This document shows positions 5,267 through 56,568 of a DNA stretch of 58,665 nt, in pieces; position 1 is the stretch's first letter; every line of letters starts with the position of its first letter. The translations under genes were made by a program, and so were the position numbers. The stretch spans positions 1-58,665 of the forward strand of contig JASBSO010000208.1 in NCBI GenBank assembly GCA_030148905.1, written 5' to 3'. This DNA is from Kordiimonadaceae bacterium. GTDB taxonomy: Bacteria > Pseudomonadota > Alphaproteobacteria > Sphingomonadales > Kordiimonadaceae. The notes under the pieces are model-generated. The model was not told the DNA's origin. It worked only from the letters and a program-made list of their open reading frames with translations, and did no database searches.

Positions 5267-5899
5267 TTAAGGGAGATTATCAGAAAGGCCAAATGGTTCC
5301 GGTGTGTCGAATGACCAGATCACGGTGACTTTGCGCCTCAAGTGCGGATATTTGAGCCGCAAACAGCGCGGGTTCTGCGCAGCGAGTTTGGCTTGGGCAA
5401 AGACCTTTGCATCTTCATAGGATGACAGGTCTTGGTTAAGTGTGTCGCCATCATACTCCCCCAACCAAAGCTCAGAATTCTGGTGTTGAATGTGGTAGTT
5501 CCAAACACCCACCTCACTGCGACTTGGCCAAATCTCCATCCACACGGATGGTCTTGAATAACCGCGACATGCGACACGAAAATAGTATTCTGGCAGACTA
5601 TGAAGATGAAAAGTTTGGCTTTCTTCAATCTCAGAAAAATAAGATGTTTTTGAGAGGAGAGGCTTCCATAAGTGCCCCAAAAAGGGCGCCTGCGGCATGT
5701 CGGGAATTTCTTCGGCAAGCGCGCGTTTGTCGGCCATATATTCATCGAGATTGTATCTGCGCTCTGCGCCGATAATTATCGCAGTGCCCGCTTCAAAAAC
5801 ATCCACAATCCTTGCGTTGCCCATGAAGAGACCATGATGCGGCAAGTCGGGAAACCGACAATAGAACACGATGCTCATCACGATAGAGAAGATGCCCAT
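5267..5899 (-). CDS. hypothetical protein (low-GC orphan)
   Basis: 210-aa ORF with no motif I recognise. The region is visibly AT-richer than its flanks. Start is uncertain (alternative Met at residue 26). Confidence 0.45.
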   Translation of the reverse strand: MGIFSIVMSIVFYCRFPDLPHHGLFMGNARIVDVFEAGTAIIIGAERRYNLDEYMADKRALAEEIPDMPQAPFLGHLWKPLLSKTSYFSEIEESQTFHLHSLPEYYFRVACRGYSRPSVWMEIWPSRSEVGVWNYHIQHQNSELWLGEYDGDTLNQDLSSYEDAKVFAQAKLAAQNPRCLRLKYPHLRRKVTVIWSFDTPEPFGLSDNLP

Positions 5900-8134: not shown

Positions 8135-9776
8135 AAAGCGCCTCCTTAAAGGGTGCGGGACCAACCCGGCGGTAAGCCGCCAGGAAGTGTTCGTCCTCTT
8201 CGCGGATGTCGAGATAGACGGCGATCACCTGTTCGATTTTGTCGGCAATCTCGTCGGCACCAAAACCGGGGCCCAACAGCTCGGCTTTGGTGGCGTCTTC
8301 CTCGCCGCTGCCGCCCAGCAAAATTTGGTAATTTTCTACACCGCGCCGGTCGACACCCAAAATCCCGATATGTCCGGCATGGTGATGCCCGCAGCTGTTG
8401 ATGCAGCCCGAAATTTTAATCTTCAGCGGGCCGACGTCCTCGAGCCGGGTCAGGTCAGCAAACCGGTTGGACAGCTCTTGCGCCAGCGGGATCGAGCGCG
8501 CATTGGCCAGCGAGCAATAATCAAGCCCCGGGCAGGCAATGATGTCGGACACCAGCCCGGCATTGGCAAAACCAAGGCCCGCACCGTCCAGCGCGGTCCA
8601 CAGGTCGGCCAAATCACGCCACGCCACATGCGGCAGGATCAGGTTTTGCTCGTGGCTGACACGCACGTCGCCCTGGCTGTATTGGTCGGCCAGGTCGGCG
8701 ATCAGTTCCATTTGGCTGTCCGACGCGTCGCCCGGAATACCGCCTGCGGGCTTGAGCGAAATCGTCACCGCCACATGGCCCGGCACCTTGTGCGGGTGGG
8801 TGTTGTTTTTCAGCCAGGCCTTGAACATCACATTCTTTGCCGCCAGCGCGTCAACAGCGTCATCTTGCGCATCCAAAACCGGTAGGGCAGGCGGGGCAAA
8901 ATAGCTGCGAATGCGGGCAATTTCCTCGGCCGGAACGTCGATGGGCTGATCTTTCATCTTTTCCCATTCGGCTTCGGTCTGGCGGGCGAATTCGTCGGCA
9001 CCAATGGCATCAACCAGAATTTTGATCCGCGCCTTGTATTTGTTGTCGCGGTTGCCCTGTTCGTTATAGACGCGCAGAATGGCTTCCAGATAACTCAGCA
9101 AATACGGTTCGGGCAAAAAGTCGCGGATGGTTTTGGCGATGACCGGCGTGCGGCCCATGCCGCCGCCCACCAGCACCTCAAAGCCGGGTTCGCCCTCGGG
9201 CCCGCGCTTCATCACCAGGCCGATATCGTGCCATTTGACCGCCGCGCGGTCTTTTTCGGCCCCGGTGATGGCGATTTTGAACTTGCGCGGCAGAAAGCTG
9301 AACTCGGGGTGCAGGCTCGACCACTGGCGGATGATTTCGCCGTAAATGCGTGGGTCGTCGATTTCCTCGGCCGTGGCACCGGCAAACTGGTCGGTGGTCA
9401 CATTGCGGATACAGTTGCCCGAGGTTTGAATGGCGTGCATTTCCACGTCGGCCAGTTCCTGCAGAATGTCGGGCGTTTCCACCAGCTTGGGCCAGTTATA
9501 CTGGATGTTTTGCCGGGTGGTGAAATGGCCGTAGCCCTTGTCATAAACCCGCGCAATACGGGCCAGGCGGCGCAACTGGTCAGAGCTAAGCGTGCCATAT
9601 GGAATAGCCACGCGCAGCATATAGGCGTGCAGCTGTAGATACAGCCCGTTCATCAGCCGCAAGGGGCGAAATTCCTCTTCGGTCAGTTCGCCCTTTAGGC
9701 GGCGGTTGACCTGGTCGCGAAATTCGGCAACGCGCGCGCCAACAATTTCATGATCATATTCGTCATATTTATACAT
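8121..9776 (-). CDS. cysI: assimilatory sulfite reductase hemoprotein (nitrite/sulfite reductase family)
   Basis: 551 aa. Siroheme/4Fe-4S cysteine motifs CPGLDYCSLA and SGCINSCGHH. Confidence 0.9.
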   Translation of the reverse strand: MYKYDEYDHEIVGARVAEFRDQVNRRLKGELTEEEFRPLRLMNGLYLQLHAYMLRVAIPYGTLSSDQLRRLARIARVYDKGYGHFTTRQNIQYNWPKLVETPDILQELADVEMHAIQTSGNCIRNVTTDQFAGATAEEIDDPRIYGEIIRQWSSLHPEFSFLPRKFKIAITGAEKDRAAVKWHDIGLVMKRGPEGEPGFEVLVGGGMGRTPVIAKTIRDFLPEPYLLSYLEAILRVYNEQGNRDNKYKARIKILVDAIGADEFARQTEAEWEKMKDQPIDVPAEEIARIRSYFAPPALPVLDAQDDAVDALAAKNVMFKAWLKNNTHPHKVPGHVAVTISLKPAGGIPGDASDSQMELIADLADQYSQGDVRVSHEQNLILPHVAWRDLADLWTALDGAGLGFANAGLVSDIIACPGLDYCSLANARSIPLAQELSNRFADLTRLEDVGPLKIKISGCINSCGHHHAGHIGILGVDRRGVENYQILLGGSGEEDATKAELLGPGFGADEIADKIEQVIAVYLDIREEDEHFLAAYRRVGPAPFKEALYAAA

Positions 9777-9782
9777 GGTCGA

Positions 9783-10100
9783 CTATTCCCAATTCGTGCC
9801 GGTTTGATAGCCAAGGTCGGGGCGCACGGTTGGCCCCGTAGTTTGCATCAAGGGTTTCATATGCGCAGGCCGCGCCGGGTTGGTGCTGGTGTCGGCTTCG
9901 ATCGCTTCAACACTGACAACGTCATTGCTGCCTTCAAATTTCAGCGCCGCATCAAGTGCGTCGTCGATGGCATCTTCATTCGCCACCAATACGCGCGCCA
10001 GGTCGGGCGACCAGTCACCGTCCTCGGTGAAAAAGACCGCACGCCCATCGGCCAGCCGATTGGCGACGATCATCTGTGGACCTTTGAGTTTTTTTGCCAT
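9783..10100 (-). CDS. DUF2849 family protein
   Basis: Lies between cysG and cysI, as is typical. ATG at 10100 is preceded by SD AGAGGAA. The TTG at 10121 in the ORF track is less likely. Confidence 0.65.
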   Translation of the reverse strand: MAKKLKGPQMIVANRLADGRAVFFTEDGDWSPDLARVLVANEDAIDDALDAALKFEGSNDVVSVEAIEADTSTNPARPAHMKPLMQTTGPTVRPDLGYQTGTNWE

Positions 10101-10117
10101 GGTTCCTCTCTTCAGGG

Positions 10118-11533
10118 TCAAGCGCTCAGGGCGCGGGCAAGTTCATCAAATCGTTCTTGCGGCCAGTCGCGGGCCGTGCGTACGACGTCGCCGATCAGCA
10201 GCAAGGCCGGGCTGATCACGCTGTGCTCGGTGATCAACTGCGGCAGCGTGGCCAGTGTGCCGTAAAAGCGGCGCTCTTCGGGGCGGGTGCCATTTTCAAT
10301 GACCGCGACCGGCGTGTGGGCGGCAACACCGTGGTGGATCAGCCCCGCGCTGATTTTCGGCGCGGTTTTAATCCCCATATACACAGCAAGCGTTTGACCA
10401 TCGCCCGACAGGCGTGCCCAGTCGCTGAAATCGCCGTGCTGGCAGTGCCCAGTCACCAATGTCAGCGACGACGACCATTGGCGGTCGGTCAGCGGAATTT
10501 GGGCGGCGGCGGCAATACCGGTGAGCGCGGTGATGCCGGGCACAACTTCGGTATCGATCCCGGCACCTCTGAGCGCGGCAAGCTCTTCGCCGGCGCGCGC
10601 AAACATCAACGGGTCGCCCGATTTCAGGCGCACAACACGCAGGCCCTCGCGGGCGTGCTCGATCATCAGGGCGTGAATACGCGGCTGGCCCTTGCCGTGC
10701 TGGCCTTCTTTTTTGCCGACATACACAAGCTTGGCGTCGCGGCGGGCGAGGCTCAGGACGTCTTTGCTCACCAGCCGGTCATACAGTACCACATCGGCCT
10801 GCTGCAGGGCGCGGTGGGCGCGCATGGTCAAGAGGTCCGGGTCGCCCGGGCCCGCACCCACAAGCTGAACCAGCCCCTTGCCGCCGGTGTCGGCGGTGCG
10901 GGCAAGATGTTCGATCTCGCTTTGTGCCGTGTCGGCATCGAGCCCGGCGAACCGGTCCGCCTGATCAAAAAGACTGTCCCAAAACTGTCGGCGCGCGGTG
11001 GCGTCAGGCAGGGCCGTTTTAACGGCGGCTTTTGCTTTTCCGGCGGCGCTCGCCAGCGTGCCGAGCGCGGGTGGAACCGCCTGCTCCAAAAGGGCGCGCA
11101 AGCGGCGCACAAACACCGGCGCCACTCCGCCCGAGGAAAAGGCAACCTGCAATGGTCCGCGGGTAAACTGCGCGGGCGTGATAAAGGTACCCAGCGCAGG
11201 GCGGTCAACGATGTTAACCGGAATGCCGCGTGCCGCTGCAGCACCTGCAATGGCGCGCTCGGCCGCATCGTCGTCCAGCGAGGCATAAACGAGGCTGATC
11301 TCGTCCAAGTCGCGGGCGGTAAAATCGCGGTCATGTACAACGGCGACCGAAGGGGCCAGGCGCTCAGACGTGAGGCCTGCGTCTTCAAGTGCTTCCGCCA
11401 TGCCGGAGCCGACAAGCCGTAGGCGCATGCCATAAGGCGCAACCAGTGCAAGCTTGGCCATGCTGGCCTCGCCCGTGCCAACAATCAGCACATGCGCGCG
11501 CTCGGCATTCAGAAAAATCGGCAAAGCTGCCAT
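10118..11533 (-). CDS. cysG: siroheme synthase (uroporphyrinogen-III methyltransferase / precorrin-2 dehydrogenase / ferrochelatase)
   Basis: 471 aa. N-terminal Rossmann fold (VLIVGTGEA) and a C-terminal SUMT domain (VGAGPGDPDLLT). Confidence 0.9.
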   Translation of the reverse strand: MAALPIFLNAERAHVLIVGTGEASMAKLALVAPYGMRLRLVGSGMAEALEDAGLTSERLAPSVAVVHDRDFTARDLDEISLVYASLDDDAAERAIAGAAAARGIPVNIVDRPALGTFITPAQFTRGPLQVAFSSGGVAPVFVRRLRALLEQAVPPALGTLASAAGKAKAAVKTALPDATARRQFWDSLFDQADRFAGLDADTAQSEIEHLARTADTGGKGLVQLVGAGPGDPDLLTMRAHRALQQADVVLYDRLVSKDVLSLARRDAKLVYVGKKEGQHGKGQPRIHALMIEHAREGLRVVRLKSGDPLMFARAGEELAALRGAGIDTEVVPGITALTGIAAAAQIPLTDRQWSSSLTLVTGHCQHGDFSDWARLSGDGQTLAVYMGIKTAPKISAGLIHHGVAAHTPVAVIENGTRPEERRFYGTLATLPQLITEHSVISPALLLIGDVVRTARDWPQERFDELARALSA

Positions 11534-23820: not shown

Positions 23821-25383
23821 ATGACCGATTCAACCGCTGACAACGCAGGGGGCGCAACCACCGCTGCGGGTTCGCAAGCGCGCGAATTTTTGGGCCACCC
23901 GATTGGCCTGCCGATATTGTTTTTGACCGAGATGTGGGAGCGCTTCTCCTTTTATGGAATGCGCGGCCTGCTGATCTTGTATCTTACCAGTCATTTTAAG
24001 TTCTCAAGTTCGCAAGCCTCGCTGATTTATGCGGGGTATTTTGCGCTTGTTTATGTGTTGCCGATTTTGGGCGGCTATTTCGCCGACCGGTATCTGGGCA
24101 GCCGCAAGGCGGTCGTGTACGGCGGGATTCTTCTGGTATTGGGGCATTTGTCGCTGGCCTTTGAAGGGCCCACAGCGGCGAGCGCGGCCGAACGATCGGA
24201 CTTTTATGTCAATGTCTTCTACCTGTCGCTGGCGTTGATCATCACCGGCGTCGGCTTTTTGAAAGCCAATATTTCGACGATTGTGGGTTCGCTCTACGGC
24301 GAGAAAGACCCCCGGCGCGACGGCGGCTTTACGCTTTTCTATATGGGGATCAACACGGGTTCCTTCCTGGCGTTTTTGATCGTTGGCTATGTTGGTCAAA
24401 CCTATGGCTGGAATTGGGGCTTTGGCCTTGCCGGTATTGGCATGCTCATTGGCCTTGTGACCTTTTTGTGGGGACAGCAATTCCTTGAAGGGCGCGCAGA
24501 CCCGCCCAACCCCGATGATCTGAAGGTCAAGGTTTTTGGCCCCATCACCAAAGAAGGCGCGGTGTATCTGACCGGGGTGGCCATGGTGATCGCGATGTGG
24601 GTCGCGATGGTGTATCACGAGCTGCTGGGCGGCATTGTGAATGGTGTCGGCGTGGTGATGCTGTTGATCCTGATCGGCTATGCGCTCTTCAAATGTACAC
24701 CGGTTGAGCGCGACCGCTTGCTGGTTGCCTGTTTCCTCTTTGTGTCGATGATCGTGTTTTGGGCGCTGTTTGAACAACAGGGTGCGTCACTGACGCTGCT
24801 TGCTGACCAGCAGTTTAGCCTGGATATGGGCTTCATCACTTTGCTGCCGGCGCAAATGCAGGTATTCAACCCCCTGTTTATCATCCTGTTTGCCCCGGTG
24901 CTCGCCTGGCTGTGGGTGCGGCTGTCGAAAATGGGGATCGAGCCCAACACCATCGCGAAATTTGGCATCTCGCTGTTGATCATGGGCATTGGGTTCCTCT
25001 TGTTCTCATACGGGCTTGGCGCCGATGAGGGATCGAACAAAAGCGTGTGGTGGCTGGTGATGATTTACTTCTTCCTCACCATGTCCGAGCTGTGCCTCAG
25101 CCCGGTTGGCCTGTCGATGGTCACCAAGCTTAGCCCGCAGCGTATTGTCGGCCTGACGATGGGATGCTTCTTCCTGTTTATTGCGATGGGCAACTGGTTT
25201 GCAGGCTTTATCAGTTCGCTCGTTGGGGCTTCCGAACATGGCGGCGGCGCGGACTCAGCGGCGATCAGCGTCCCGGCGACGATTGAGCTGTTCACCAATA
25301 TCGCGATCGCATCGCTGGTGTTGGGGGTCATTTTGGTGATCCTGTCACGGCCCTTGAAGGCGCGCATGCACGGGGTGCATTAA
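23821..25383 (+). CDS. proton-dependent oligopeptide transporter (POT/PTR2 family)
   Basis: 520 aa. EMWERFSFYGMR (ExxER) and GGYFADRYLG motifs. Confidence 0.9.
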   Translation: MTDSTADNAGGATTAAGSQAREFLGHPIGLPILFLTEMWERFSFYGMRGLLILYLTSHFKFSSSQASLIYAGYFALVYVLPILGGYFADRYLGSRKAVVYGGILLVLGHLSLAFEGPTAASAAERSDFYVNVFYLSLALIITGVGFLKANISTIVGSLYGEKDPRRDGGFTLFYMGINTGSFLAFLIVGYVGQTYGWNWGFGLAGIGMLIGLVTFLWGQQFLEGRADPPNPDDLKVKVFGPITKEGAVYLTGVAMVIAMWVAMVYHELLGGIVNGVGVVMLLILIGYALFKCTPVERDRLLVACFLFVSMIVFWALFEQQGASLTLLADQQFSLDMGFITLLPAQMQVFNPLFIILFAPVLAWLWVRLSKMGIEPNTIAKFGISLLIMGIGFLLFSYGLGADEGSNKSVWWLVMIYFFLTMSELCLSPVGLSMVTKLSPQRIVGLTMGCFFLFIAMGNWFAGFISSLVGASEHGGGADSAAISVPATIELFTNIAIASLVLGVILVILSRPLKARMHGVH

Positions 25384-25384
25384 C
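25351..25384 (+). repeat. left copy of 34-bp direct repeat (last 10 codons + stop of the POT gene)
   Basis: cccttgaaggcgcgcatgcacggggtgcattaac matches 26768-26801 at 33 of 34 positions. Confidence 0.95.
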
Positions 25385-25397
25385 TGGAAATTGTCCG

Positions 25398-25432
25398 TTT
25401 GCCAGTCAATAAAACATTATTTGACTGGCAAA
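25398..25432 (+). terminator. hairpin at the left end of the islet (possible substitute terminator)
   Basis: tttgccagtcaa / ttgactggcaaa perfect 12-bp stem with an 11-nt AT loop. Only a short T-run follows. Confidence 0.4.
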
Positions 25433-25572
25433 TTTCATAGTGTGCATTTTGTGGCCGTCAAATATTTTTGCCGTTCAAAAAAATGAAAATTGGTTGACAA
25501 AAGCTTTTTTCGCTCAAAAATTGGAAGCCAACTGGCATTGTCATCCAAAAATTGAATTTTTGACGGGAAAAT

Positions 25573-26745
25573 ATGCATGGCCATTTGGATGTTATGACTC
25601 AAACCTTGAGCCCGCTTCTGTCCGGCTATGACGCTGATGGCGCTGTAAGGTACCATTATGGTGCCTTCCCTCCCGACCATATAAATTTTGCACACTTGAT
25701 GGCCCTGGCTATGGAAGCAAGTGCGGCTTTGGCCAGGTACGATCAAATGGTGCAAAGCTTGGCCAATCCCAGCCTTCTTATTGCACCGCTGTCGCGAAGA
25801 GAAGCCGTTGCCTCTTCTAGGATGGAAGGCACTGTTAGCACTTTAGATGCATTATTGGAGCTTGAGTCTGAACAAGGGGATGGCGAGGAGCACCCCTCAG
25901 AATTTAGGCGTAGCGAAACATTTGAAGTGCTTTTGTATACGCGGGCCATGCAAAAGGCAGAAATTGCATTACAAGCGGGCTATCCAATCAGCGAAACGCT
26001 TATTCGCGAGATGCACCAAACACTCTTGTCATTTGGGAGAGGTGCTTCGAAAAGGCCCGGCGAGTATAAAACCGAACAAAATTATCTAGCCGATACAAGG
26101 CAAAGAAAAATCCAATTTATTCCGATCTCGCCAAGTGATTTACGTCCTGCTATGCGAAATATGATAGCGTTCATGGGCGACACAAAAATTCCTTCGCTTT
26201 TTAGGGTAGCAATCGGTCATGTAGAGTTTGAAGCGCTGCACCCTTTTGATGATGGTAATGGCCGCGTGGGACGGATGCTTATCACGCTATATCTTAGCCA
26301 GTTGGGTCTAATCGGTGCACCGTATTTTTACATCTCGGGATATTTTGACGACCATAAAGACGAGTATATTGAGGCAATGCGGGCGGTTTCGCGCGACAAG
26401 GATTGGACAAGGTGGTGCCAATTCTTTTTTGAAGCGGTTAAAGGGCAATCCGAGTCAAGCTTATCAGTCGCCAATGCAATATCCTCACACTATGAAATTC
26501 TTAAGCCACAGGTTTCGGAATGTTTGGGCTCAAAATGGAGTGTTAAGGTTCTGGATCATATATTTGCATATCCGATTTTTACAGCTCCACAGTTATCAAA
26601 GGGTGCGGGGTTGACGCAGTCATCTGCAAACCGTTTCGTTAGGCATCTTCATGACGCCGGGATTATTGATATCCTTAGACTTGGCGCAGGACGTAGGCCG
26701 ACCCGTTACCGGCTGACCTCACTACTTGATATCGTCAGAAACTAG
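25573..26745 (+). CDS. Fic family protein (AMPylase-type Fic domain with N-terminal inhibitory helix and C-terminal wHTH-like tail)
   Basis: HPFDDGNGRVGR matches HPFx(D/E)GNGRxxR. The upstream SSRMEG matches the (S/T)xxxE(G/N) inhibitory motif. Alternative start at 25594. Confidence 0.9.
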   Translation: MHGHLDVMTQTLSPLLSGYDADGAVRYHYGAFPPDHINFAHLMALAMEASAALARYDQMVQSLANPSLLIAPLSRREAVASSRMEGTVSTLDALLELESEQGDGEEHPSEFRRSETFEVLLYTRAMQKAEIALQAGYPISETLIREMHQTLLSFGRGASKRPGEYKTEQNYLADTRQRKIQFIPISPSDLRPAMRNMIAFMGDTKIPSLFRVAIGHVEFEALHPFDDGNGRVGRMLITLYLSQLGLIGAPYFYISGYFDDHKDEYIEAMRAVSRDKDWTRWCQFFFEAVKGQSESSLSVANAISSHYEILKPQVSECLGSKWSVKVLDHIFAYPIFTAPQLSKGAGLTQSSANRFVRHLHDAGIIDILRLGAGRRPTRYRLTSLLDIVRN

Positions 26746-26767
26746 TCTGGGTTCTTTAGATAAGAAG

Positions 26768-26801
26768 CCCTTGAAGGCGCGCATGCACGGGGTACATTAA
26801 C
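26768..26801 (+). repeat. right copy of 34-bp direct repeat (displaced POT gene 3' end)
   Basis: cccttgaaggcgcgcatgcacggggtacattaac. The single difference (G to A) is a synonymous GTG/GTA change in the POT reading frame. Confidence 0.95.
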
Positions 26802-26818
26802 AATAGCCAACAGAACAG

Positions 26819-26847
26819 GCGGGGCTTAAGGGCCCCGCATCTTTTTT
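26819..26847 (+). terminator. rho-independent terminator (original POT gene terminator, now downstream of the islet)
   Basis: gcggggc / gccccgc GC stem, short loop, then atctttttt. Confidence 0.75.
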
Positions 26848-26867: not shown

Positions 26868-28277
26868 ATGCGACCATTTCGCAACCTTCGGGTTTTCGCT
26901 GGGCTGGCTGCTGTTGCGGCAGTGACAAGCACCGGCATACAGGCCCAAACCGTCGTTGAGCGCGAGCCAGCGGCGTTTCAGTCAACTTATACGCGGCTTG
27001 ATGCGCCGATCACGGCGATCACCGGTGTCAATGCCTTTGACGGCAAGGGCGGCGCGATGACGAATGTCACCGTTGTGTTCGGCGGCGGCGAGATTATGGC
27101 GATTGGACCGAGTGTCGCGGTCCCCAACGGGGCGCGGGTGATTGACGGTTCAGGCAAATGGCTGACGCCGGGCATTATCGACGTGCACAGTCATTTGGGT
27201 GTGTACCCGTCGCCGGCGACGCCGTCGCATTCGGACGGCAATGAAGTGGGCGAACCAGTGACGGCGGATGCTTGGGCCGAGCATTCCAACTGGCCACAAG
27301 ACCCAGGCTTTATCCGCGCCGCCGCAGGCGGCATCACCGCGCTTCAGCTGTTGCCGGGCTCAGCCAACCTAGTGGGCGGGCGCGCGGTTACGCTGAAAAA
27401 CGTGCCGGGCCGCATTGCACAAGATATGAAGTTTCCAGGCGCGCCGCACGGCGTCAAACTGGCTTGCGGCGAAAACCCCAAGCGCGTTTATGGCAGCAAA
27501 TTCGGGGAATTTTTCAGCCGTCCGCACACCCGTATGGGCAATGTGGCGGGATACCGCCAGGCCTTTGCCGATGCACAGGCTTATGGCCGCGCTTGGGATA
27601 AATATACCCGCGACGCTGAGGCTGGCGAAGATGTGTTGCCCCCTAAGCGCGACCTGAAAATGGACACCATGCTGGGCATCATGAACGGCGATATTCTGGT
27701 GCATACGCATTGCTACCGCGCTGATGATATGGGTAGCTTCATGGATGTGGCGGACGAGTTCGGCTTCAAGGTGTCGGCCTTCCATCATGCCAGCGAGAGC
27801 TATAAAATCGGTGACCTTTTGGCCGAGCACGGGGCATGCAGCGCCATGTGGGCGGACTGGTACGGCTTCAAGATGGAGGCCTATGACGGCATCCGCGAAA
27901 ACATTCCCTTTGTGCACAAATCTGGCGCGTGTGCCATTGTCCACTCGGACGATGACATCGGTATTCAGCGCCTCAATCAGGAAGCCGCCAAGGCCCTGGC
28001 CGACGGCAACCGGGCGGGCCTTGATATCAGCAAGGCGGAGGCCTGGATATGGCTCAGTCTGAACCCTGCCAAGTCGCTTGGTATCGATGATCAGACGGGC
28101 ACGCTCGAGGTCGGTAAGGACGCCGATGTGGTGCTATGGTCGGGGGACCCCTTCAGCGTCTATACCAATGCCGAATTGACCTTTGTTGACGGGGCGGTGA
28201 TCTGGGACCGTGCGAACCCTGACCGTGCAGTGATGGATTTCGAGCTTGGCCAACCGGGTGAAGGAGACCTGAAATGA
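26868..28277 (+). CDS. secreted amidohydrolase family protein
   Basis: 469 aa. Signal peptide and the DVHSHLG (HxH) metal-binding motif. Confidence 0.85.
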   Translation: MRPFRNLRVFAGLAAVAAVTSTGIQAQTVVEREPAAFQSTYTRLDAPITAITGVNAFDGKGGAMTNVTVVFGGGEIMAIGPSVAVPNGARVIDGSGKWLTPGIIDVHSHLGVYPSPATPSHSDGNEVGEPVTADAWAEHSNWPQDPGFIRAAAGGITALQLLPGSANLVGGRAVTLKNVPGRIAQDMKFPGAPHGVKLACGENPKRVYGSKFGEFFSRPHTRMGNVAGYRQAFADAQAYGRAWDKYTRDAEAGEDVLPPKRDLKMDTMLGIMNGDILVHTHCYRADDMGSFMDVADEFGFKVSAFHHASESYKIGDLLAEHGACSAMWADWYGFKMEAYDGIRENIPFVHKSGACAIVHSDDDIGIQRLNQEAAKALADGNRAGLDISKAEAWIWLSLNPAKSLGIDDQTGTLEVGKDADVVLWSGDPFSVYTNAELTFVDGAVIWDRANPDRAVMDFELGQPGEGDLK

Positions 28278-29536
28278 AGACATTTCTGAAAAGCGTCGCC
28301 CTTGCGGGCCTCGTCTCGGGTGCCGCGGCGGCCGACAAAATCGCCATCACCGGCGGCACCGCCTTCACCATGAACGGTGACGAGCGGATCGAAAATGCCA
28401 CCATTTTGGTGGATGGCGGAAAGATCGAGGCGGTCCGGTCAGGCGGCTCGGTGCCCGCTGGCTACCGGGTGATCGATGCTTCGGGGAAGTGGGTGACACC
28501 GGGGCTTATGGCCTCGGGCACGCAGCTTGGCCTTGTCGAGGTCAGCCTGTCGGGTGGGATTGTCGATGCCTCGGCCACCGCCAAGGCCAAGGACCCGGTG
28601 ACTATCGACGTGACCTGGGCGATCAACCCCGACAGCACGCTGATCCCCATTACCCGGATCGAGGGCATTACCCGTGCTGCCACCGGCATGCAATCCACCG
28701 GCGATGTGTGGCTGGGCCAGGGGGCGGTGATCCATCTTGGTGACGGTTATGATCTGACCGTTCGGGACCGCGCCTTTATCGGGCTGAACATGACCGGGTC
28801 TTCGGCTGACGCCAATGGTGGCAGTCGGGCGGTCATTTGGCGAGATGTGATCACCGCGCTTGAAAAAGCCGAGCCGCAGCCCGCAATGGCCGACGATGAC
28901 AAAGACGAAAAAGCCAAAGAGAAAAAACCAGACCCGGTCAAGGATACCCTTGCGAGACTTTTCTCGGGCGAGGCCACACTGGTTGTGGCGGCCCACAGGG
29001 CGGCAGATATCCGCAATGTGATCAAGCTCAAAAGCCGGTTTGATATCAACATCGCATTGATGGGGGGGGCCGAGGCATGGCGTGAAGCTGCGGCGCTGGC
29101 TGGTGCGGGTATCCCCGTTATTCTCAATGCGCTCGATAATCTGCCCGGCAGCTTTGAAACGCTGGGTGCGACCCAGGCCAATGCGGCCCGCCTGCACGCA
29201 GCCGGTGTCACCATTGCGCTGGTGGGGCGCGGCACGCACAATGCGCGGCTGATGCCGCAATATGCCGGCAATGCAGTGGCGAACGGGCTGCCCTGGTCGG
29301 CGGCGATGGCGGCGATGACAACCGGCCCTGCCGAGATTTTTGGCATTGCTGACAGTTACGGCACGCTTGCCGAGGGCATGGACGCCGATATCGTGGTTTG
29401 GTCGGGCGACCCGATCGAGTTGGATACCGCAGCCGAGCATGTGATGATCGTGGGCGAGGAAATTGACCTTGTGTCGCGGCAAACCAAGCTGCGCGACCGC
29501 TATAAAGAGTTGAGCCGCAGCCCGGCTTTCCGCTGA
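28274..29536 (+). CDS. amidohydrolase family paralog lacking the N-terminal HxH motif
   Basis: 420 aa. ATGA overlap with the upstream gene. Aligned position reads GLMASGTQLG instead of IIDVHSHLG. C-terminal GMDADIVVWSGDP is conserved. Confidence 0.75.
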   Translation: MKTFLKSVALAGLVSGAAAADKIAITGGTAFTMNGDERIENATILVDGGKIEAVRSGGSVPAGYRVIDASGKWVTPGLMASGTQLGLVEVSLSGGIVDASATAKAKDPVTIDVTWAINPDSTLIPITRIEGITRAATGMQSTGDVWLGQGAVIHLGDGYDLTVRDRAFIGLNMTGSSADANGGSRAVIWRDVITALEKAEPQPAMADDDKDEKAKEKKPDPVKDTLARLFSGEATLVVAAHRAADIRNVIKLKSRFDINIALMGGAEAWREAAALAGAGIPVILNALDNLPGSFETLGATQANAARLHAAGVTIALVGRGTHNARLMPQYAGNAVANGLPWSAAMAAMTTGPAEIFGIADSYGTLAEGMDADIVVWSGDPIELDTAAEHVMIVGEEIDLVSRQTKLRDRYKELSRSPAFR

Positions 29537-29595: not shown

Positions 29596-30159
29596 ATGGA
29601 CGACGGCAAAACCCGCTGTTTTGGAAGCGGCAAAGACTTTTATGCACATTATCACGACACCGAATGGGGCGTGCCGGTTCATGACGACCGGCACCTGTTT
29701 GAAATGCTCATTCTTGAAGGCGCGCAGGCGGGCCTGAGCTGGGAAACCGTCTTAAAAAAGCGCGCCCAGTATAAGCGCCTCTTTCACGACTTTGATATCG
29801 CCCGTTGTGCGGCGCTGACCGACGCCGAACTTGAGGCCATCCTGACGGATTCGGGGATTGTCCGGAACCGGCTGAAAGTCTTCTCGGTGCGCAAGAATGC
29901 GCTCGCATATCAGGCGATTCAGACGGAATACGGATCTTTCGACGACTATCTGTGGGCATATGTAGACGGTCAGCCGATAGACAATTGCCCGGCTGATTGG
30001 TCCGAAGTGCCGACGTCAACGCCGCTGAGTGATCTGATTTCCAAAGACTTGAAAAAACGCGGTATGAGCTTTGTCGGCTCCACGATTATCTACGCCTATC
30101 TGCAAGGCGTTGGCGTTGTGAACGATCACCTTGCAGACTGCTGGTGTCGGCAGACATAA
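29596..30159 (+). CDS. tag: DNA-3-methyladenine glycosylase I
   Basis: 187 aa. YHDTEWGVPVHDD...LILEGAQAGLSW is the typical Tag signature. Confidence 0.9.
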   Translation: MDDGKTRCFGSGKDFYAHYHDTEWGVPVHDDRHLFEMLILEGAQAGLSWETVLKKRAQYKRLFHDFDIARCAALTDAELEAILTDSGIVRNRLKVFSVRKNALAYQAIQTEYGSFDDYLWAYVDGQPIDNCPADWSEVPTSTPLSDLISKDLKKRGMSFVGSTIIYAYLQGVGVVNDHLADCWCRQT

Positions 30160-52060: not shown

Positions 52061-52135
52061 GGACGCGTAGCTCAGTGGTAGAGCACTGTGTTGACATCGC
52101 AGGGGTCGGCAGTTCAATCCTGCCCGCGTCCACCA
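52061..52135 (+). tRNA. tRNA-Val (anticodon GAC), CCA encoded
   Basis: Cloverleaf folded by hand. Acceptor stem ggacgcg/cgcgtcc. D arm gctcagtggtagagc. Anticodon stem ctgtg/cgcag with loop ttGACat. T arm ggcag ttcaatc ctgcc. Discriminator A followed by CCA. Confidence 0.93.
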
Positions 52136-53320: not shown

Positions 53321-54028
53321 TTATGCAGGCATGCGCCGATGATGTACCCATAAAACACCCGCAAAAATGTTATCAATGCCTACGGTTTCTGTCGCGCCGT
53401 TTTCCGTGCCCGGCGTTGGCGCGCTCTGGTCTGGGTCGCCCAGATCAAAACGGTAGCTCTGATAGCGCGGATTAGGCTCTGCCGGGACCGCAACCAGCCA
53501 CAGGGCACCGTCCGCCGTGCGGTGCAAGCGCCGCAGCACAACGGTCTCGTCGCGCCGCGCCATCAAAAGTGCCCCCGGAACCAGCGGGAAATGATGCAGC
53601 CGTGGGTCTGCGCCTATCACCAAACTGCCTTCGGGGACCTCGGTCGCCATGGACTCGTCGCCCATCAGATAACAGTACAAGCCCTCATTTGTGGCCGCGT
53701 CGGGCGGTAAGGGAACGCTGGAAAAGGAAAGTGTATCGGCAGGGGCAATGTCGCCGGTGCCTGTTATGGCGCCCAAAACCGGCAGCCGGTCGTCACGGTT
53801 GTCGCCGTCGTCGGGGATAGACTGGCCCGCCTCAAGGCTTTTCAAAAGCCGTGTCGGGGACATGGCAAGCATGTTGGCGAGCGGTAAAATCTCATCCGAT
53901 TGCACCTCGCGCATGCCTTTAATGACATCGGTGACGCGCGGCGGCGAAATGCTGAGCCGCTGTGCTGCATCTTTCAACTTCAAACCGCGCGCCTTCAGCG
54001 CCGTTTTGAGCCAAGCTTGTTCTCTCAT
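53321..54028 (-). CDS. phage CI/LexA-like repressor (XRE HTH + S24 peptidase-like domain)
   Basis: Start at MREQAW (54028). HTH LKLKDAAQRLSISPPRVTDVIKG. S24-type GDESMATEVPEGSLVIGAD. The ORF track extends to 54133. Confidence 0.8.
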   Translation of the reverse strand: MREQAWLKTALKARGLKLKDAAQRLSISPPRVTDVIKGMREVQSDEILPLANMLAMSPTRLLKSLEAGQSIPDDGDNRDDRLPVLGAITGTGDIAPADTLSFSSVPLPPDAATNEGLYCYLMGDESMATEVPEGSLVIGADPRLHHFPLVPGALLMARRDETVVLRRLHRTADGALWLVAVPAEPNPRYQSYRFDLGDPDQSAPTPGTENGATETVGIDNIFAGVLWVHHRRMPA

Positions 54029-54146
54029 GTCTTCATTATTCCGGAAACCAACAGGCTTGTCATTTACGAAAAGAGAAAATTTAAGTCTTGTCAATAAACA
54101 TTCGATAAACGTAATATATTTTCTTGCAATCAAGGAGGCGATATCG
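54029..54146. promoter_or_regulatory. divergent promoter/operator region of the phage-like switch
   Basis: Plus strand: -35 TTGTCA (54088-54093), 18-nt spacer, -10 TAATAT (54112-54117). ATAAAC direct repeats at 54094-54099 and 54105-54110 lie inside the spacer. The complement of the -35 region reads TTGACA for the minus strand. Confidence 0.45.
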
Positions 54147-54710
54147 ATGAATGACGACAGTATAACGATGGCTTTGGATCAGGCTTGTAAGGATTTTGCG
54201 CGGTTGCTACAGCGCCGTACCCCAAGTGCAGACGATAGCCTCAATGCACAGATGACGCATTTTCTGGAGACCCGGCTGGTGGATGCCGCCTGGACCCTCC
54301 GCAGGCTGCCGGACCGGGAGAAAGGGTTTTTATATCAGCGCCAAACTCTATGGCCAGATATGCGCCAGACTGACGGTCAACCGATTGATTTATCAATAGA
54401 TACCGTCTTCGCGCGAAAGCAGGTCCGGCCCAGCCCGCGGCAGATTGATGCGATGATCCCCACCATGGACTTGCTGCGCTTACTGCCCGACATAAAAGAC
54501 CGCAATGTTGTGTTTTGGGGCGCATGGCACCAGGACGGCGAAGTCCAAGCGCGCATCCCATGGGCCAAGGTGCGGCGCAGCCTGGGCAGCGACCTGTCGC
54601 GTTGGACAATGAAACGCCGATATCAGAGCGCGTTGGACTGGCTGGCCCGCCTTGTTGTGCAGCGGAATCAAAAAAATTACAAAAAAAGTAAAAAAATGAT
54701 TGCACCCTAA
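54147..54710 (+). CDS. phage-associated protein of unknown function, putative late-gene regulator
   Basis: 187 aa. ATG at 54147 with a strong SD AAGGAGG (54132-54138). Divergent from the repressor. Arg/Trp-rich C-terminal segment. I recall similar proteins in alphaproteobacterial prophages but cannot verify this. Confidence 0.6.
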   Translation: MNDDSITMALDQACKDFARLLQRRTPSADDSLNAQMTHFLETRLVDAAWTLRRLPDREKGFLYQRQTLWPDMRQTDGQPIDLSIDTVFARKQVRPSPRQIDAMIPTMDLLRLLPDIKDRNVVFWGAWHQDGEVQARIPWAKVRRSLGSDLSRWTMKRRYQSALDWLARLVVQRNQKNYKKSKKMIAP

Positions 54711-54827: not shown

Positions 54828-55355
54828 ATGGCTGACGACACATCGCGCGTTGACGGCGCGGATATTTGGTCTTCTGATCGCCCACACACCGATAAGCGTA
54901 TTGCCCGGTTTCTGGCCGCACTTGACGAAGGCCTGTCGGTTGCCAGTGCGGCCAAGACTGCAGGTATCAACCGGTCTTGGCTGTATCGGTTGCGTGCCCG
55001 CGACGCGACGTTTGATGCGGCCTGGCATGATGCGTGCGAGGCTGGAACCGACCGGCTGGAAGACGAAGCCCGCCGCCGCGCGGTTGAGGGCGTGGAAAAG
55101 CCAGTGTTTCGTGGCGGCGAGATTGTTGGGCATGTGCGCGATTATTCCGACGCCATGCTGATCTTTTTGCTCAAGGCCCGCCGCCCGGAAATCTTTGCTC
55201 CAGCCGCAAAGCAGAGCGCGACCACCGCACAAAGTGACGACGGTGCCAACACCACAAACGCCACAAACGCACAGGAAACCCTTTACCGTAAATTTGCTCA
55301 GATCCTTACCGAAGCGTCTGATCCGGAAGTTTCTGGGGACACTGAACAAGGCTGA
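54828..55355 (+). CDS. phage terminase small subunit (HTH type)
   Basis: Start at MADDTS (ATG at 54828, preceded by GGGAGA). HTH LSVASAAKTAGINRSWLYRLR and the conserved SDAMLIFLLKARRPE tail. Positioned before terL. Confidence 0.7.
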   Translation: MADDTSRVDGADIWSSDRPHTDKRIARFLAALDEGLSVASAAKTAGINRSWLYRLRARDATFDAAWHDACEAGTDRLEDEARRRAVEGVEKPVFRGGEIVGHVRDYSDAMLIFLLKARRPEIFAPAAKQSATTAQSDDGANTTNATNAQETLYRKFAQILTEASDPEVSGDTEQG

Positions 55356-56568
55356 GTCCGAAGCCCTTCTTTATGATTGGGCGTTCTGGGCACGGCCCAC
55401 ACAGCATCCGCCGCCCGGCAATTGGACGCACTGGCTTATTTTGGCCGGGCGCGGCTTTGGTAAAACCCGCACCGGTGCAGAGTGGGTCCGGGCGCGGGTA
55501 GAGGCAGGCCAAGCCCGGCACATCGCCCTGATCGCCCCCACACTCGGTGATGCGCGCGCGGTGATGGTGGAAGGTGAATCGGGCCTGCTGGCCGTGTGCC
55601 CGCCCGACCGCCGTCCTAAATTTGAGCCGTCCAAACATCTTCTGACCTGGCCGTGCGGCGCCAAAGCGCGACTGTTCAGCGCCGATCAACCGGAGCGTCT
55701 GCGTGGCCCACAGCACGACACCGCCTGGGCTGATGAACTGTGCGCCTGGCGGTTGCCCGATGCCGGATGGGATATGTTGATGTTTGGTCTCCGGCTTGGC
55801 GGCAAGCCGCAATGCTGCATCACCACGACGCCCAAGCCAATTGCGCTCTTGAAACGGCTGGTGATCGACCCCGCGGTCGCGGTGACCACGGGCAGCACCT
55901 ATGAAAATATTGAAAATCTTGCCCCCAGCTTTGCGCGCGATGTCATCGCGAAATACGAAAATACCCGGCTTGGCCGACAAGAGCTTGCGGCCGAATTGCT
56001 GTGGGATGTGCCGGGCGCCTTGTGGTCGCGCGACCAGATCGACGGCCTCTATGCCCCGCCGACGGCCAGGCTGGAGCGGATCGTTGTGGCGATTGACCCA
56101 CCAGCAACGGCGGGCTCGAACGCTGATGCCTGCGGTATCATTGTTGCCGCGCGTTCAGGCCGTATGGCCTATGTGCTGGCCGACCGGTCCTGCCAGGGGC
56201 TCAGCCCGCTGGGGTGGGCGGCCCGCGCGGTTGAGGCCTATCACGATTTTCAGGCAGACCGCATCATCGCCGAGGGCAACCAGGGCGGCGATATGGTGCT
56301 CGCGCTTTTGCACCAGATCGACCCAAATGTCGCCGTGCGCCGGGTCCATGCACGGCGGGGCAAAGTCACACGGGCTGAACCGGTGGCTGCGCTTTATGAA
56401 CAGGGCCGCGTGTTTCACGCCGCACCGATGCCGGCGCTTGAAGACCAAATGGTCACCTTTACCGGTGCACCCAGCGCCGACAGTCCAGACCGGCTGGATG
56501 CGCTCGTATGGGCGCTGGCGGACCTGATGCTGACCCCCAAAGGGCAACCCCGACTGAGGAGCTTATAA
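55195..56568 (+). CDS. phage/GTA-type terminase large subunit
   Basis: LLYDWAFWARP...WLILAGRGFGKTRTGAEWV (Walker A-like) resembles RcGTA g2-type TerL, as recalled. The true start may be the in-frame TTG at 55294, because the ATG at 55195 overlaps terS by 161 nt. Confidence 0.85.
   Translation: MLQPQSRARPPHKVTTVPTPQTPQTHRKPFTVNLLRSLPKRLIRKFLGTLNKAESEALLYDWAFWARPTQHPPPGNWTHWLILAGRGFGKTRTGAEWVRARVEAGQARHIALIAPTLGDARAVMVEGESGLLAVCPPDRRPKFEPSKHLLTWPCGAKARLFSADQPERLRGPQHDTAWADELCAWRLPDAGWDMLMFGLRLGGKPQCCITTTPKPIALLKRLVIDPAVAVTTGSTYENIENLAPSFARDVIAKYENTRLGRQELAAELLWDVPGALWSRDQIDGLYAPPTARLERIVVAIDPPATAGSNADACGIIVAARSGRMAYVLADRSCQGLSPLGWAARAVEAYHDFQADRIIAEGNQGGDMVLALLHQIDPNVAVRRVHARRGKVTRAEPVAALYEQGRVFHAAPMPALEDQMVTFTGAPSADSPDRLDALVWALADLMLTPKGQPRLRSL

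Follow-up and report, generated by a model that had tools for sequence, protein, structure and literature searches.

Genes and features of the locus

The window, i.e., the whole stretch of DNA analyzed, is 58,665 nt long. Between the gene for a POT-family oligopeptide transporter and two amidohydrolase genes it contains an islet made up of a leader and a single Fic gene, bracketed by two copies of the last few codons of the POT gene (Table 1). G+C between the repeat copies is 42–53%, against 53–66% in the flanks, and the Fic gene itself, at 0.47, is 12 points lower than its flanks at 0.59; the islet is foreign by composition. A first-pass annotation of the same DNA had described an AT-richer insert with Fic as its sole gene and without a recombinase, and G+C, ORF and Pfam analyses agree on each of these points. 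The Fic gene is the only credible ORF between the repeats: the islet has no room for a recombinase ORF, with 209 nt 5' of the start used in the protein database (25594) and 21 nt 3' of the stop. Neither the islet nor the other window ORFs that were checked include an integrase.

Table 1. Coordinates in the window of the islet and its surroundings.
Feature	Position	Strand	Evidence
POT/PTR2 proton-dependent oligopeptide transporter (target gene of the proposed insertion)	23821..25383	+	Pfam PF00854 5.8e-75; NCBIfam TIGR00924 5.3e-110
Left repeat copy, attL-like, functional POT gene end	25350..25384	+	repeat search
AT-richer islet, leader and one gene	25385..26766 (1,382 nt)	+	G+C, ORFs
Fic gene leader	25385..25593	+	promoter scan, motif count
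Hairpin with perfect 13-bp stem	25397..25433	+	inverted repeat; fold -20.3 kcal/mol, z = -4.3
Predicted SoFic-family class II Fic AMP-transferase	25573..26745	+	PADLOC, PDB, Pfam matches
Right repeat copy, attR-like, displaced non-coding POT end	26767..26801	+	repeat search
Rho-independent terminator	26819..26847	+	hairpin 26819-26838, 8 pairs (7 G-C), T-run; -17.2 kcal/mol
Two amidohydrolase genes	26868-28277, 28274-29536	+	Pfam Amidohydro_1, Amidohydro_3

Within the leader, a promoter scan identified a sigma-70-like promoter (TTGACA-16-AAAAAT, 25494–25521), and a palindrome, AAAAGCTTTT, is present at 25498–25507. The leader also harbors four CNGTCAA motifs, in both orientations (25403+, 25421-, 25455+ and 25560-), against an expectation of 0.07–0.2; these are putative operator or arm-type sites. 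Two of the four form an inverted pair inside the hairpin that begins 13 nt past the left repeat. This hairpin was not scored as a canonical terminator by the terminator scan, and it may serve POT as a weak terminator or as an insulator or, alternatively, be a palindromic protein-binding site. No DNA-level relative of the leader was found at any of the loci compared, and no Rfam family scored above threshold in the islet.

Family assignment of the Fic gene

Counted from the alternative start at 25594, which is that of the protein database, the Fic protein is 383 amino acids long. It matches the PADLOC SoFic model PDLC03963 (6.1e-98) over profile positions 10–358 of 361, and the SoFic structures 3EQX, 3ZCN and 9TC4 in the PDB at ~1e-30 over residues 37–365; in both comparisons, similarity to SoFic is full-length and includes the C-terminal domain. 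Pfam recognizes Fic (PF02661, 7.4e-17) and Fic_N (PF13784, 5.6e-21). The catalytic motif HxFx(D/E)GNGRxxR is present in the translation as HPFDDGNGRVGR. Class II Fic proteins are defined by an inhibitory motif within the same polypeptide (PMC12249575), and SSRMEG, which is invariant in the window and its two nearest relatives (L081 and L083), conforms to the class II consensus (S/T)xxxE(G/N). The score against the NCBIfam SoFic equivalog model was 140.9 bits, under the 550-bit cut-off, and the protein is therefore not an equivalog of the Shewanella oneidensis SoFic itself; its nearest database relatives are only ~50% identical.

[quoted passage not shown] SoFic defends by AMPylation-based abortive infection (PMC12249575), and defense activity is likewise predicted for the window's own Fic protein. 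By homology, it would be kept inactive by the N-terminal inhibitory helix containing SSRMEG, and phage infection would lead it to AMPylate cellular targets and thereby abort the infection.

The repeat pair

The copies of the direct repeat are 35 nt long and identical at 34 positions, extending by one base at the left the 34-bp repeat (33/34) originally described. Both sequence and translation show that the left copy, as claimed, consists of the last 10 POT codons (..P L K A R M H G V H), the TAA and one further base; the single mismatch, GTG vs. GTA, is indeed synonymous (Val) in the POT frame, and the terminator, a hairpin at 26819–26838 followed by a T-run, does lie 17 nt past the right copy. 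The right copy itself starts 21 nt past the Fic stop. A dyad in the left copy, ATGCAC-GGG-GTGCAT (6-bp arms and a 3-nt spacer), lies within the repeat because the MHGVH codons are conserved, and it is statistically not compelling alone. Compared with the window's own POT end, the right copy is identical at 34/35 positions; against the POT end of L081, the stretch containing the right copy reaches only 81.6% over 38 nt.

Only two copies of the 35-mer at ≤3 mismatches are present in the window, where shuffled sequences lead one to expect none, and the pair is the sole high-identity direct repeat in the window at ≤8 kb spacing. A dispersed REP-type repeat, raised in the first-pass annotation as a possible objection, is rejected on this locus-specificity within the 58.7 kb of the window. 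No inverted repeats at the ends of the islet came up in the repeat search, and no microhomology was evident in the junctions inspected in sequence. Islander looks for a regenerated target gene at one end of an island and a displaced fragment at the other, and both are present here (25350–25384 and 26767–26801); it also looks for an integrase gene inside the island, and there the only notable ORF is Fic.

The POT slot in related genomes

The closest genome in the databases (L081) has a POT ortholog 87% identical to that of the window; for L083 the value is 77%, and L081 and L083 are 78% identical to one another. Both of these nearest relatives harbor a different SoFic allele, with ~50% identity, at the same junction, and neither has repeats around it. 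Nucleotide homology between the window and L081 ends exactly at position 25384. Fic identity is 50% between the window and L081 and 68% between L081 and L083, and the three Fic proteins are set apart from the rest of the unrooted family tree by a single split (100/100 bootstraps).

In Kordiimonas laminariae the slot is empty: the POT stop is followed after 35 nt by a terminator and then by the amidohydrolase pair. The terminator in the window is probably the original one of POT, which now ends the Fic transcript. The amidohydrolase pair is found 3' of POT in L084, L086 and L169, and is missing behind POT in L081 and L083; the two genes are the ancestral downstream neighbors of POT, on the far side of a variable slot. 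Other occupants of that slot, in more distant relatives, are a sulfotransferase-like gene (L084), two unrelated genes (L088) and, between POT and the amidohydrolases, a beta-lactamase-family gene (L086). A 158-nt repeat (157/158) flanks this last gene on both sides and covers the homologous POT end.

Empty sites had been predicted in relatives; Kordiimonas laminariae has one, but in the two nearest relatives the site is taken by the other SoFic allele. Differing occupants, with Fic in the nearest relatives, therefore indicate a long-standing variable slot, and a one-off insertion does not fit relatives in which the slot is variously empty or filled by the other allele or by other genes.

Could Fic then simply be an old resident, vertically inherited and orthologous to the L081 and L083 genes, with the repeat an unrelated local duplication? 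That both nearest relatives have a Fic gene at this junction, and that the trio group together in the tree, would fit. However, Fic identity (50% window–L081 vs. 68% L081–L083) is at odds with POT identity (87% vs. 78%), the Fic gene is still 12 points under its flanks in G+C, and a non-coding 35-nt copy with a single mismatch cannot be old. The window has also kept both ancestral amidohydrolase genes, which are missing behind POT in L081 and L083. Vertical inheritance was already disfavored on these grounds, and we regard it as very improbable.

SoFic homologs at other loci

A single-gene cassette with att-like ends, which the first-pass annotation expected to be unusual, is no singular oddity: SoFic homologs in unrelated contigs repeat the arrangement. 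At L119, the repeat (46/46 nt) extends from about position 31 of a tRNA-Thr through its 3' end. At L104, a copy of the 3' half of tRNA-Met, starting from the anticodon loop, is 38/48 identical and shows compensatory changes in the T-stem, so two different tRNA alleles gave rise to the copies, as in the product of attP x attB recombination. The L144 repeat includes the terminator and begins in the T-loop of what resembles the 3' end of a tRNA or tmRNA (for which ARAGORN made no prediction). Starts in the anticodon loop and the T-loop are documented crossover subsites of tyrosine integrases (PMC4383910). Further SoFic homologs are bracketed by the 3' ends of protein-coding genes (L099, L145 and L149), by an 86/86 intergenic repeat (L117) or by a terminator hairpin (L172 and L173). 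Repeat lengths over all cases vary from 24 to 158+ nt. Repeats scoring at least 25 were found at 4 of ~62 non-redundant Fic loci vs. 1/540 control positions (Fisher p = 4.7e-4).

A parent-type element exists. At L100, the order is tRNA-Met, SoFic, a Phage_GPA replication gene, a P4-type integrase (PF00589, 9.7e-18) and a 65-nt tRNA fragment; the element is 7.3 kb long with ATGTAGAC repeats at both ends, and it is the only integrase-bearing relative that was seen. Of the 15 close SoFic homologs in predicted prophages, 8 lie ≤312 bp from the element end, two of them adjoining tRNA-Met. For the window's own 35-nt repeat, no cognate integrase, ICE or other element was found.

These independent assemblies bear on whether the islet might be an artefact, a separate molecule sharing the 35-mer having been threaded into what is, after all, an entire 58.7-kb contig. 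Assemblers usually finish with k-mers longer than the 35-nt repeat, and reads must therefore span both junctions. Equivalent architectures are found in separate assemblies (L116 and L117; L081 and L082), and the islet makes sensible use of the downstream terminator. We judge an artefact to be extremely improbable.

Origin of the islet

On balance, and with moderate confidence, we favor the interpretation that the islet is a horizontally acquired single-gene defense cassette that entered a hotspot by integrase-type insertion, its recombinase having acted in trans or since been lost. The 35-nt repeats would be attL and attR, products of a conservative, tyrosine-integrase-type site-specific recombination in which the POT 3' end served as attB and a matching sequence on a circular element from outside as attP. 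The left junction would thereby rebuild the POT end, and the right would be the displaced original, still joined to its original terminator, which would now end the Fic transcript. Either the recombinase would have been supplied in trans to a minimal, CIME-like cassette, or it would have been lost by one internal deletion, in which case the source would be a small integrative element with SoFic adjoining an att site. We infer the recombinase mechanism in both its variants, trans-mobilization and deletion.

A rebuilt gene end at one junction and a displaced copy by the old terminator at the other are the signature of integrase insertion into the 3' end of a gene, and tRNA-gene islands show comparable integrase-made geometry (PMC4383910). 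The 34/35 match between the copies and the low G+C of Fic support a recent insertion, and L086 supports the use of the same POT-end target in another lineage. Further support comes from the target-end repeats around SoFic homologs elsewhere, their excess over control positions, the L100 element and the end-proximal SoFic genes of prophages. Several islets are so compact, and their repeats so nearly perfect, that slow decay appears less likely. With the right repeat starting just 21 nt past the Fic stop, there is no element-borne arm region on that side; a heterobivalent integrase could therefore probably not act on the islet as it is now. Overall, the original proposal of site-specific integration is partly supported, by the geometry, the locus-specific repeat, the foreign composition and the empty Kordiimonas laminariae site, but the nearest relatives are occupied and homologous recombination is still a rival. 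SoFic without repeats at the same junction in those relatives runs counter to an integrase origin. The single tree split of the POT-linked SoFic proteins fits exchange between homologous loci equally as well as a POT-end-specific element.

The serious rival to an integrase origin is Campbell-type homologous integration, in which a circularized fragment of a divergent relative, containing a POT end and SoFic, entered an empty slot by a single RecA-dependent crossover in the ~35-nt POT end. The homologous stretch would be duplicated with no site-specific recombinase, and SoFic would have long resided behind POT in the clade, as in L081 and L083. Those two genomes do have SoFic at the exact junction without repeats. 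The Fic trio is one split (100/100), yet the window allele is ~50% identical where POT is 87% and 77%; one split together with discordant Fic and POT identities indicates allele replacement within a POT-linked lineage. Variable repeat lengths (24 to 158+ nt) and the near-identity of the window copies (34/35) are also accommodated, and the nearly perfect 158-nt repeat of L086 is of sufficient length for RecA. However, 35 nt is about the lower length limit for RecA-mediated recombination, and circularization of a fragment ending 21 nt past the Fic stop lacks an explanation. In addition, the anticodon- and T-loop starts and the T-stem differences of L104 point to integrases and not to random homology, and the donor is absent from the sampled genomes. 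We consider homologous integration unlikely, if by no means negligible.

Alternatively, foreign DNA may have been captured close to the POT terminator, at a staggered break or by a replication template switch, with the 35 nt from one break or switch point to the other copied twice as a long target-site duplication. Such duplicative illegitimate insertion would derive both copies from the window's own lineage sequence, as the 34/35 match suggests, and would allow repeat length to differ from case to case in islets without a mobility gene. Terminator hairpins lie in or abut the repeats of L086, L144 and L172/L173, and are present in the window's right flank, and hairpins could stall replication. 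Against this, no bacterial mechanism that regularly makes 35–158-nt duplications around a captured gene is known. Nor would random breaks be expected to yield two independent events at the POT end (window and L086), the tRNA sublocation pattern or the divergent tRNA halves of L104, and the junctions lack evident microhomology. This explanation seems to us improbable.

A broader extension of the integrase-type interpretation is possible, if rather doubtful: SoFic and some other single accessory genes (e.g., the L086 beta-lactamase-family gene) may travel as minimal promoter-plus-ORF cassettes, moved by trans-acting recombinases that target terminators and the 3' ends of both tRNA and housekeeping genes. 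If so, a duplicated target end would remain at every insertion, and the whole would amount to a chromosome-wide cassette system distinct from integrons, one that could explain lone defense genes at hotspots without identifiable mobilization.

Implications

Surveys of defense islands list many hotspot occupants for which no means of movement has been established (PMC10121019). The window locus and about a dozen related cases keep a mechanistic trace, the duplicated target end around a single defense gene, and the question of mobility is therefore testable. Accessory genes have long been exchanged in the space behind POT, and the host would have gained there, if homology is a guide to function, an abortive-infection defense gene. 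That repeat-bracketed single-gene inserts recur in unrelated bacteria hints at how lone defense genes move.

Comparison with known systems

With integron cassettes the islet shares a compact single ORF and, as proposed, a recombinase encoded elsewhere; unlike them, it is led by a promoter region of its own and lies between duplicated stretches of the host target. An integron cassette proper is rejected: there is no attC-like site or hairpin, attI, intI or array, only 21 nt before a repeat of POT coding sequence. A transposon or IS is rejected on the absence of terminal inverted repeats and of a transposase ORF and on the 35-nt duplication. A Xer-dependent IMEX at dif, which would have 28-nt dif-like sites on both sides and lie at the replication terminus, is rejected since the repeat is the POT coding end, with a weak resemblance to E. 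coli dif, and cumulative GC skew climbs steadily across the locus with no switch.

The SoFic systems of Shewanella oneidensis (SoFic) and E. coli H397 (Sofic) have the same Fic_N, Fic and C-terminal domains in a single gene. E. coli SoFic is followed by a 47-amino acid antitoxin, AS1 (PMC12249575), for which the window has no room because only 21 nt remain before the repeat.

Prophage e14 (and phage 21) in icd of E. coli is a familiar case of insertion at a protein-coding gene's 3' end. The final 165 nt of icd are provided by e14, which leaves a displaced 165-nt icdC fragment at the far junction, the same logic as in the islet, and it carries the defense genes McrA, the last before icdC, and Lit, in the icd-proximal half. 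However, e14 is 15 kb long and encodes intE and xisE, whereas the islet is 1.4 kb with one gene, no recombinase and a 35-nt duplication. The CIMEs of streptococcal ICE families likewise keep attL and attR without integration or transfer genes, att function being assumed for the islet; a CIME is by definition tied to a known ICE, the integrase of which works on the CIME's att sites, whereas no ICE is known for this single-gene, 1.4-kb islet. Related SoFic genes are also cargo of tRNA/tmRNA islands and P4-like satellites with defense genes (L100, L119, L104 and L144; PMC4383910), but the window's target is the end of a protein-coding gene, and no integrase or replication gene accompanies it.

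Finally, E. coli hotspot #37 and the core defense hotspots of Pseudomonas hold variable cargo between conserved genes, often without mobility genes, and no way of mobilizing them has been identified (PMC10121019). The POT slot does likewise, with two SoFic alleles, beta-lactamase-family, sulfotransferase-like or other genes, or nothing at all, but the occupants in the window and in L086 keep a target duplication, a trace that goes unmentioned in the published hotspot descriptions consulted.

The islet and its flanking repeats

The islet occupies a long-lived variable slot behind the POT gene; it consists of a SoFic gene, predicted to act in defence, with an att-like duplication on its flanks. 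The duplication, described in the first-pass annotation as 34 bp, is real but one base longer. As had been read directly from the sequence, the left copy comprises the final ten POT codons (PLKARMHGVH), the TAA and one further base, and the lone mismatch between the copies, GTG versus GTA, is synonymous in the POT frame. The right copy begins 21 nt 3' of the Fic stop, and the terminator proposed beyond it was recovered as a hairpin followed by a T-run (see the table). The repeat occurs only twice at up to three mismatches in the 58,665-nt window, where shuffled sequences are expected to give none, and no other high-identity direct repeat spaced by up to 8 kb was present in the whole window. 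With just these two copies in the 58,665 nt covered, the earlier concern that the 34-mer might be a dispersed REP-type element can be set aside.

Features of the window and of two comparison loci (window coordinates unless a locus is named)
Feature	Position	Strand	Details
POT/PTR2 oligopeptide transporter gene	23821-25383	+	PF00854 5.8e-75; TIGR00924 5.3e-110
Direct repeat	25350-25384 and 26767-26801	+	35 nt, 34/35 matches (repeat search)
Hairpin	25397-25433	+	13-bp stem; -20.3 kcal/mol, z = -4.3
Sigma-70-like promoter	25494-25521	+	Predicted, promoter scan
Palindrome	Fic leader		AAAAGCTTTT
Fic ORF	25573 or 25594 to 26745	+	Fic_N and Fic domains
Terminator	26819-26847	+	Hairpin with 7 G-C pairs + T-run; 17 nt past right copy; folds at -17.2 kcal/mol
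Left islet junction			..CATTAAC, then TGGAAATTG
Right islet junction			..GATAAGAA, then GCCCTTGAAGG
Expected empty-site junction			..GGGGT[G/A]CATTAAC, then AATAGCCAACAG; predicted sequence
Expected excised-circle junction			..GATAAGAA, then GCCCTTGAAGGCGCGCATGCACGGGGT[G/A]CATTAAC, then TGGAAATTG; predicted sequence
HTH_3 regulator	53321-54130	-	
DUF6362 protein	53691-54707		
Large terminase	55195-56565		
L086 insert (GCA_054187005.1, JBTAKM010000002.1)	L086:9451-11391		Between POT and amidohydrolase pair; beta-lactamase-family gene 9688-11178
L100 element at tRNA-Met	L100:5433-12849		7.3 kb; SoFic, Phage_GPA replication gene, two unknown genes, integrase, 65-nt tRNA fragment

Several other readings of the repeat pair were rejected. 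A dif/IMEX site does not fit a repeat that is coding sequence; the GC skew shows no switch, and the resemblance to E. coli dif is weak. Neither a transposon nor an integron cassette agrees with a 35-nt duplication, and the former would lack terminal inverted repeats and the latter an attC site. A tandem POT paralog remnant was likewise discarded, there being no tandem POT in the clade's relatives and the duplicate covering only the last 31 coding nt and the stop. In five Flavobacterium loci (L011, L002, L020, L071, and L022), tandem POT paralogs a few kb apart do repeat the coding sequence of their ..KKLMHGV C-termini; such paralogs imitate flanking repeats and produce false positives when islands are sought by their repeats.

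The Fic gene and its leader

The view of the insert as AT-richer than its surroundings, with Fic as its sole gene, was borne out: G+C between the copies is 42-53% versus 53-66% in the flanks, and one credible gene lies inside the 1,382 nt. An Rfam scan of the islet gave no family at threshold. The ORF encodes SSRMEG, the inhibitory motif of class II, along with the catalytic motif HPFDDGNGRVGR, and it matches the PADLOC SoFic anti-phage model over its full length (6.1e-98); solved SoFic structures align with residues 37-365 at about 1e-30. The gene belongs to the SoFic family, and its role in anti-phage defence is predicted by homology. Its nearest relatives in a database of 5.8 billion proteins are only about 50% identical, and exact-sequence look-up returned no identical sequence to either the 390 amino acid Fic protein or POT. 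SoFic is reported to be a class 2 Fic protein and a single-protein defence system that uses AMPylation to bring about abortive infection; a gene for a 47-residue antitoxin lies downstream of it in E. coli H397 (PMC12249575). The window islet has no room for such a gene.

In the window leader (25385-25593) the motif CNGTCAA occurs four times, counting both orientations, where 0.07-0.2 occurrences are expected; among the leader motifs only this count has statistical support. The palindrome ACAAAAGCTTTTGT is common to the window and L081 leaders, L081 being one of the two nearest relatives by POT; none of the fetched loci contained a DNA-level relative of the islet leader. Other SoFic leaders also have short-repeat arrays of their own, specific to each lineage and likewise in both orientations, with CACAWCAAG in L149 (5270-5420) and TCTCAAA or GCTCAAA in L104 (5590-5860). 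AT-rich k-mers with a TCAAA core were frequent across SoFic leaders, relative to a coding-DNA control that is not rigorous. These arrays may be candidate operators for the C-terminal winged-helix-like domain, or arm-type sites for a recombinase.

The POT slot in relatives

A POT scan of genome contigs gave identities of 36-50% among the matches listed, with no orthologous locus among them; orthologous loci were obtained by protein search and contig look-ups. The POT proteins most similar to that of the window come from L081 and L082 (87% identical) and from L083 (77%); those of L081 and L083 are 78% identical to each other. Both L081 and L083 hold a Fic gene immediately behind the POT stop, without a flanking repeat around it. 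Nucleotide homology between the window and L081 stops exactly at 25384 and returns only at 29641, in the downstream adenine-glycosylase gene. The two Fic proteins are about 50% identical to that of the window and 68% identical to each other, and the Fic distances thus contradict the host relationships given by POT. The three Fic proteins formed one split in 100/100 bootstraps of an unrooted tree built from 65 SoFic homologs, a sample skewed toward sequences that resemble the query. Taken with the discordant distances, this split places the window allele as deeply divergent within a POT-linked SoFic lineage, and we judge the window Fic to be such an allele and not a vertically inherited ortholog.

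Among more distant relatives (POT 60-63% identical), the slot varies in content. In Kordiimonas laminariae the POT stop is followed by 35 nt, the terminator, and the amidohydrolase pair; in Eilatimonas milleporae a LysR gene comes directly after POT. L084 has a sulfotransferase-like gene ahead of the amidohydrolases, and L088 has two unrelated genes in the slot. The empty site predicted for relatives therefore exists in K. laminariae, but the nearest relatives carry another Fic allele without a repeat. In L086 a direct repeat of 158 nt (157/158 matches) flanks the lone gene; it takes in the final ~98 nt of POT with the stop and continues for about 60 nt more. A repeat at the same target with other cargo marks the POT 3' end as a recurrent insertion point, and, because that cargo is of the beta-lactamase family, repeat-bracketed single-gene inserts at this site are not confined to Fic.

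L081 (11682-13438) and L083 (11830-13887) lack the amidohydrolase pair that the window (26868-29536) and more distant relatives have after POT, so the slot has also undergone deletions; a mere 2 nt separate the Fic stop of L081 from the start of its adenine-glycosylase gene.

Repeat-bracketed SoFic genes elsewhere

Direct repeats were sought in 80 metagenome loci with SoFic homologs (44-51% identity), with a copy required no farther than 800 bp from the gene on either side. A score of 25 was reached by 4 of about 62 non-redundant Fic loci versus 1 of 540 control pseudo-genes in unrelated loci (Fisher p = 4.7e-4), the single control scorer being a tandem paralog. The targets are diverse. In L099 (1-2035) Fic lies between duplicates of a protein-coding gene's 3' end that are at least 104 nt long (101/104), and about 520 nt of the target gene's 3' part follow Fic directly. 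In L117 (5669-7038; L116 is the same sequence) an intergenic repeat of 86/86 encloses Fic alone, its right copy beginning 9 nt after the Fic stop. L145 (5783-7162) has a 27-nt repeat (25/27) near an upstream gene end, with an alternative in-frame gene end retained in the right copy, and L149 (5176-6576) has a 24-nt repeat (22/24) at a PNPase-like gene end, with the right copy 1 nt past the Fic stop.

Other repeats involve structural RNA genes or terminators. The 46/46 repeat in L119 (272-2325) is tRNA-Thr from about position 31 through the 3' end, whereas that in L144 (5530-7950), approximately 75 nt including a terminator, starts at the T-loop of a tRNA- or tmRNA-like 3' end for which ARAGORN made no call. 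A targeted search found, in L104 (5397-7167), tRNA-Met, SoFic, and then a tRNA-Met 3' half 19 nt past the stop, which begins at the anticodon loop and matches the intact tRNA at 38/48 positions with compensatory T-stem changes; these changes indicate that the copies derive from different tRNA alleles, as recombination of a foreign attP with a host attB predicts. In the predicted prophages L172 (7747-9188) and L173, a 35-40-nt terminator hairpin stands on both sides of Fic.

The repeats range overall from 24 to 104 or more nt, with only Fic between the copies (L117, L119, L099, L144, L145, L149, L104, and L172). Repeat-bearing members are spread across the entire SoFic tree, and the G+C of Fic is almost always below that of its flanks. 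A single-gene cassette with its own att sites had been considered unusual; instead, the architecture recurs in unrelated SoFic contigs. A full-text literature search found no paper in which the Fic domain appears together with genomic islands, their integrases and direct repeats. Repeat-bracketed single defence genes are a recurrent pattern that is apparently undescribed so far. They offer a handle on how such genes move, which is the main reason the islet matters.

Links to integrases and the mechanism of insertion

L100 shows an intact parent-type element. Its P4-type tyrosine integrase (PF00589, 9.7e-18) also has an Arm-DNA-binding domain. ATGTAGAC repeats are present close to each end of the element, and upstream of the L100 Fic gene a segment of about 100 bp stands in three tandem copies (5640-5830). 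In L154, L123, and L092, SoFic lies 350-530 bp from a tRNA 3' end with no detectable repeats, and in IMG/VR 8 of 15 close SoFic homologs are within 312 bp of a predicted prophage end, two of them beside tRNA-Met. In 8 of the 15 viral contigs no further gene separates SoFic from the boundary of the contig or prophage (L175, L179, L181-L184, and L186), and tRNA-Met lies 140-164 bp beyond in L179 and L183.

Integrases are in general rare beside SoFic genes: among 147 neighbouring ORFs, no integrase family recognised by Pfam reached two members, and the commonest family was the AbiEii toxin (5/147), with three DUF6088 proteins (L089-L121, within 4.5 kb), which suggests small defence clusters among housekeeping genes, e.g., dnaG-rpoD and clpB. 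Pfam also found no recombinase among 10 further window ORFs. The stretch downstream of tRNA-Val (52061-52135), running to the contig end at 58665, is phage-like and is a prophage or a gene-transfer-agent-like cluster.

Integrase-type insertion at the POT 3' end is the most likely origin of the islet: site-specific recombination would have rebuilt the POT end and pushed the original end, with its terminator, to the far side. The att-like duplication and rebuilt end partly support the original proposal of integration into a gene 3' end, but the slot is long-lived and not empty in the nearest relatives. Its strongest competitor is Campbell integration, in which RecA would have inserted a circularised fragment, made up of a POT end plus SoFic, that came from a relative with SoFic behind POT. 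This would explain both the shared position and the incongruence of the alleles; however, 35 nt of homology is generally considered marginal for RecA, and the tRNA sublocation pattern and the L104 alleles are left unaccounted for. Under integrase-type insertion, the islet could have arrived by either of two routes. It may be a minimal, CIME-like cassette (as defined in PMC6323972) inserted by a recombinase acting in trans, in keeping with the several islets whose repeats are perfect or nearly so and which contain no pseudogene debris, and with right repeats mostly 1-55 nt from the cargo stop. It may instead be a remnant left by one internal deletion, since L100 and the prophage-end positions put SoFic as att-proximal cargo, and the present islet, its right copy 21 nt past the stop, has no element arm on that side.

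Crossover subsites of tyrosine integrases in tRNAs are documented, and they are matched by the repeats that begin at the anticodon loop or T-loop and extend as far as the tRNA 3' end or beyond it; the ends of such islands are defined by a regenerated target and a displaced fragment (PMC4383910). Where the target is a protein-coding gene, the textbook analogue is e14 of E. coli K-12, which begins inside icd and has a 165-nt icdC fragment at its far end, and which also carries defence genes, McrA being the last before icdC and Lit lying in the half nearer icd.
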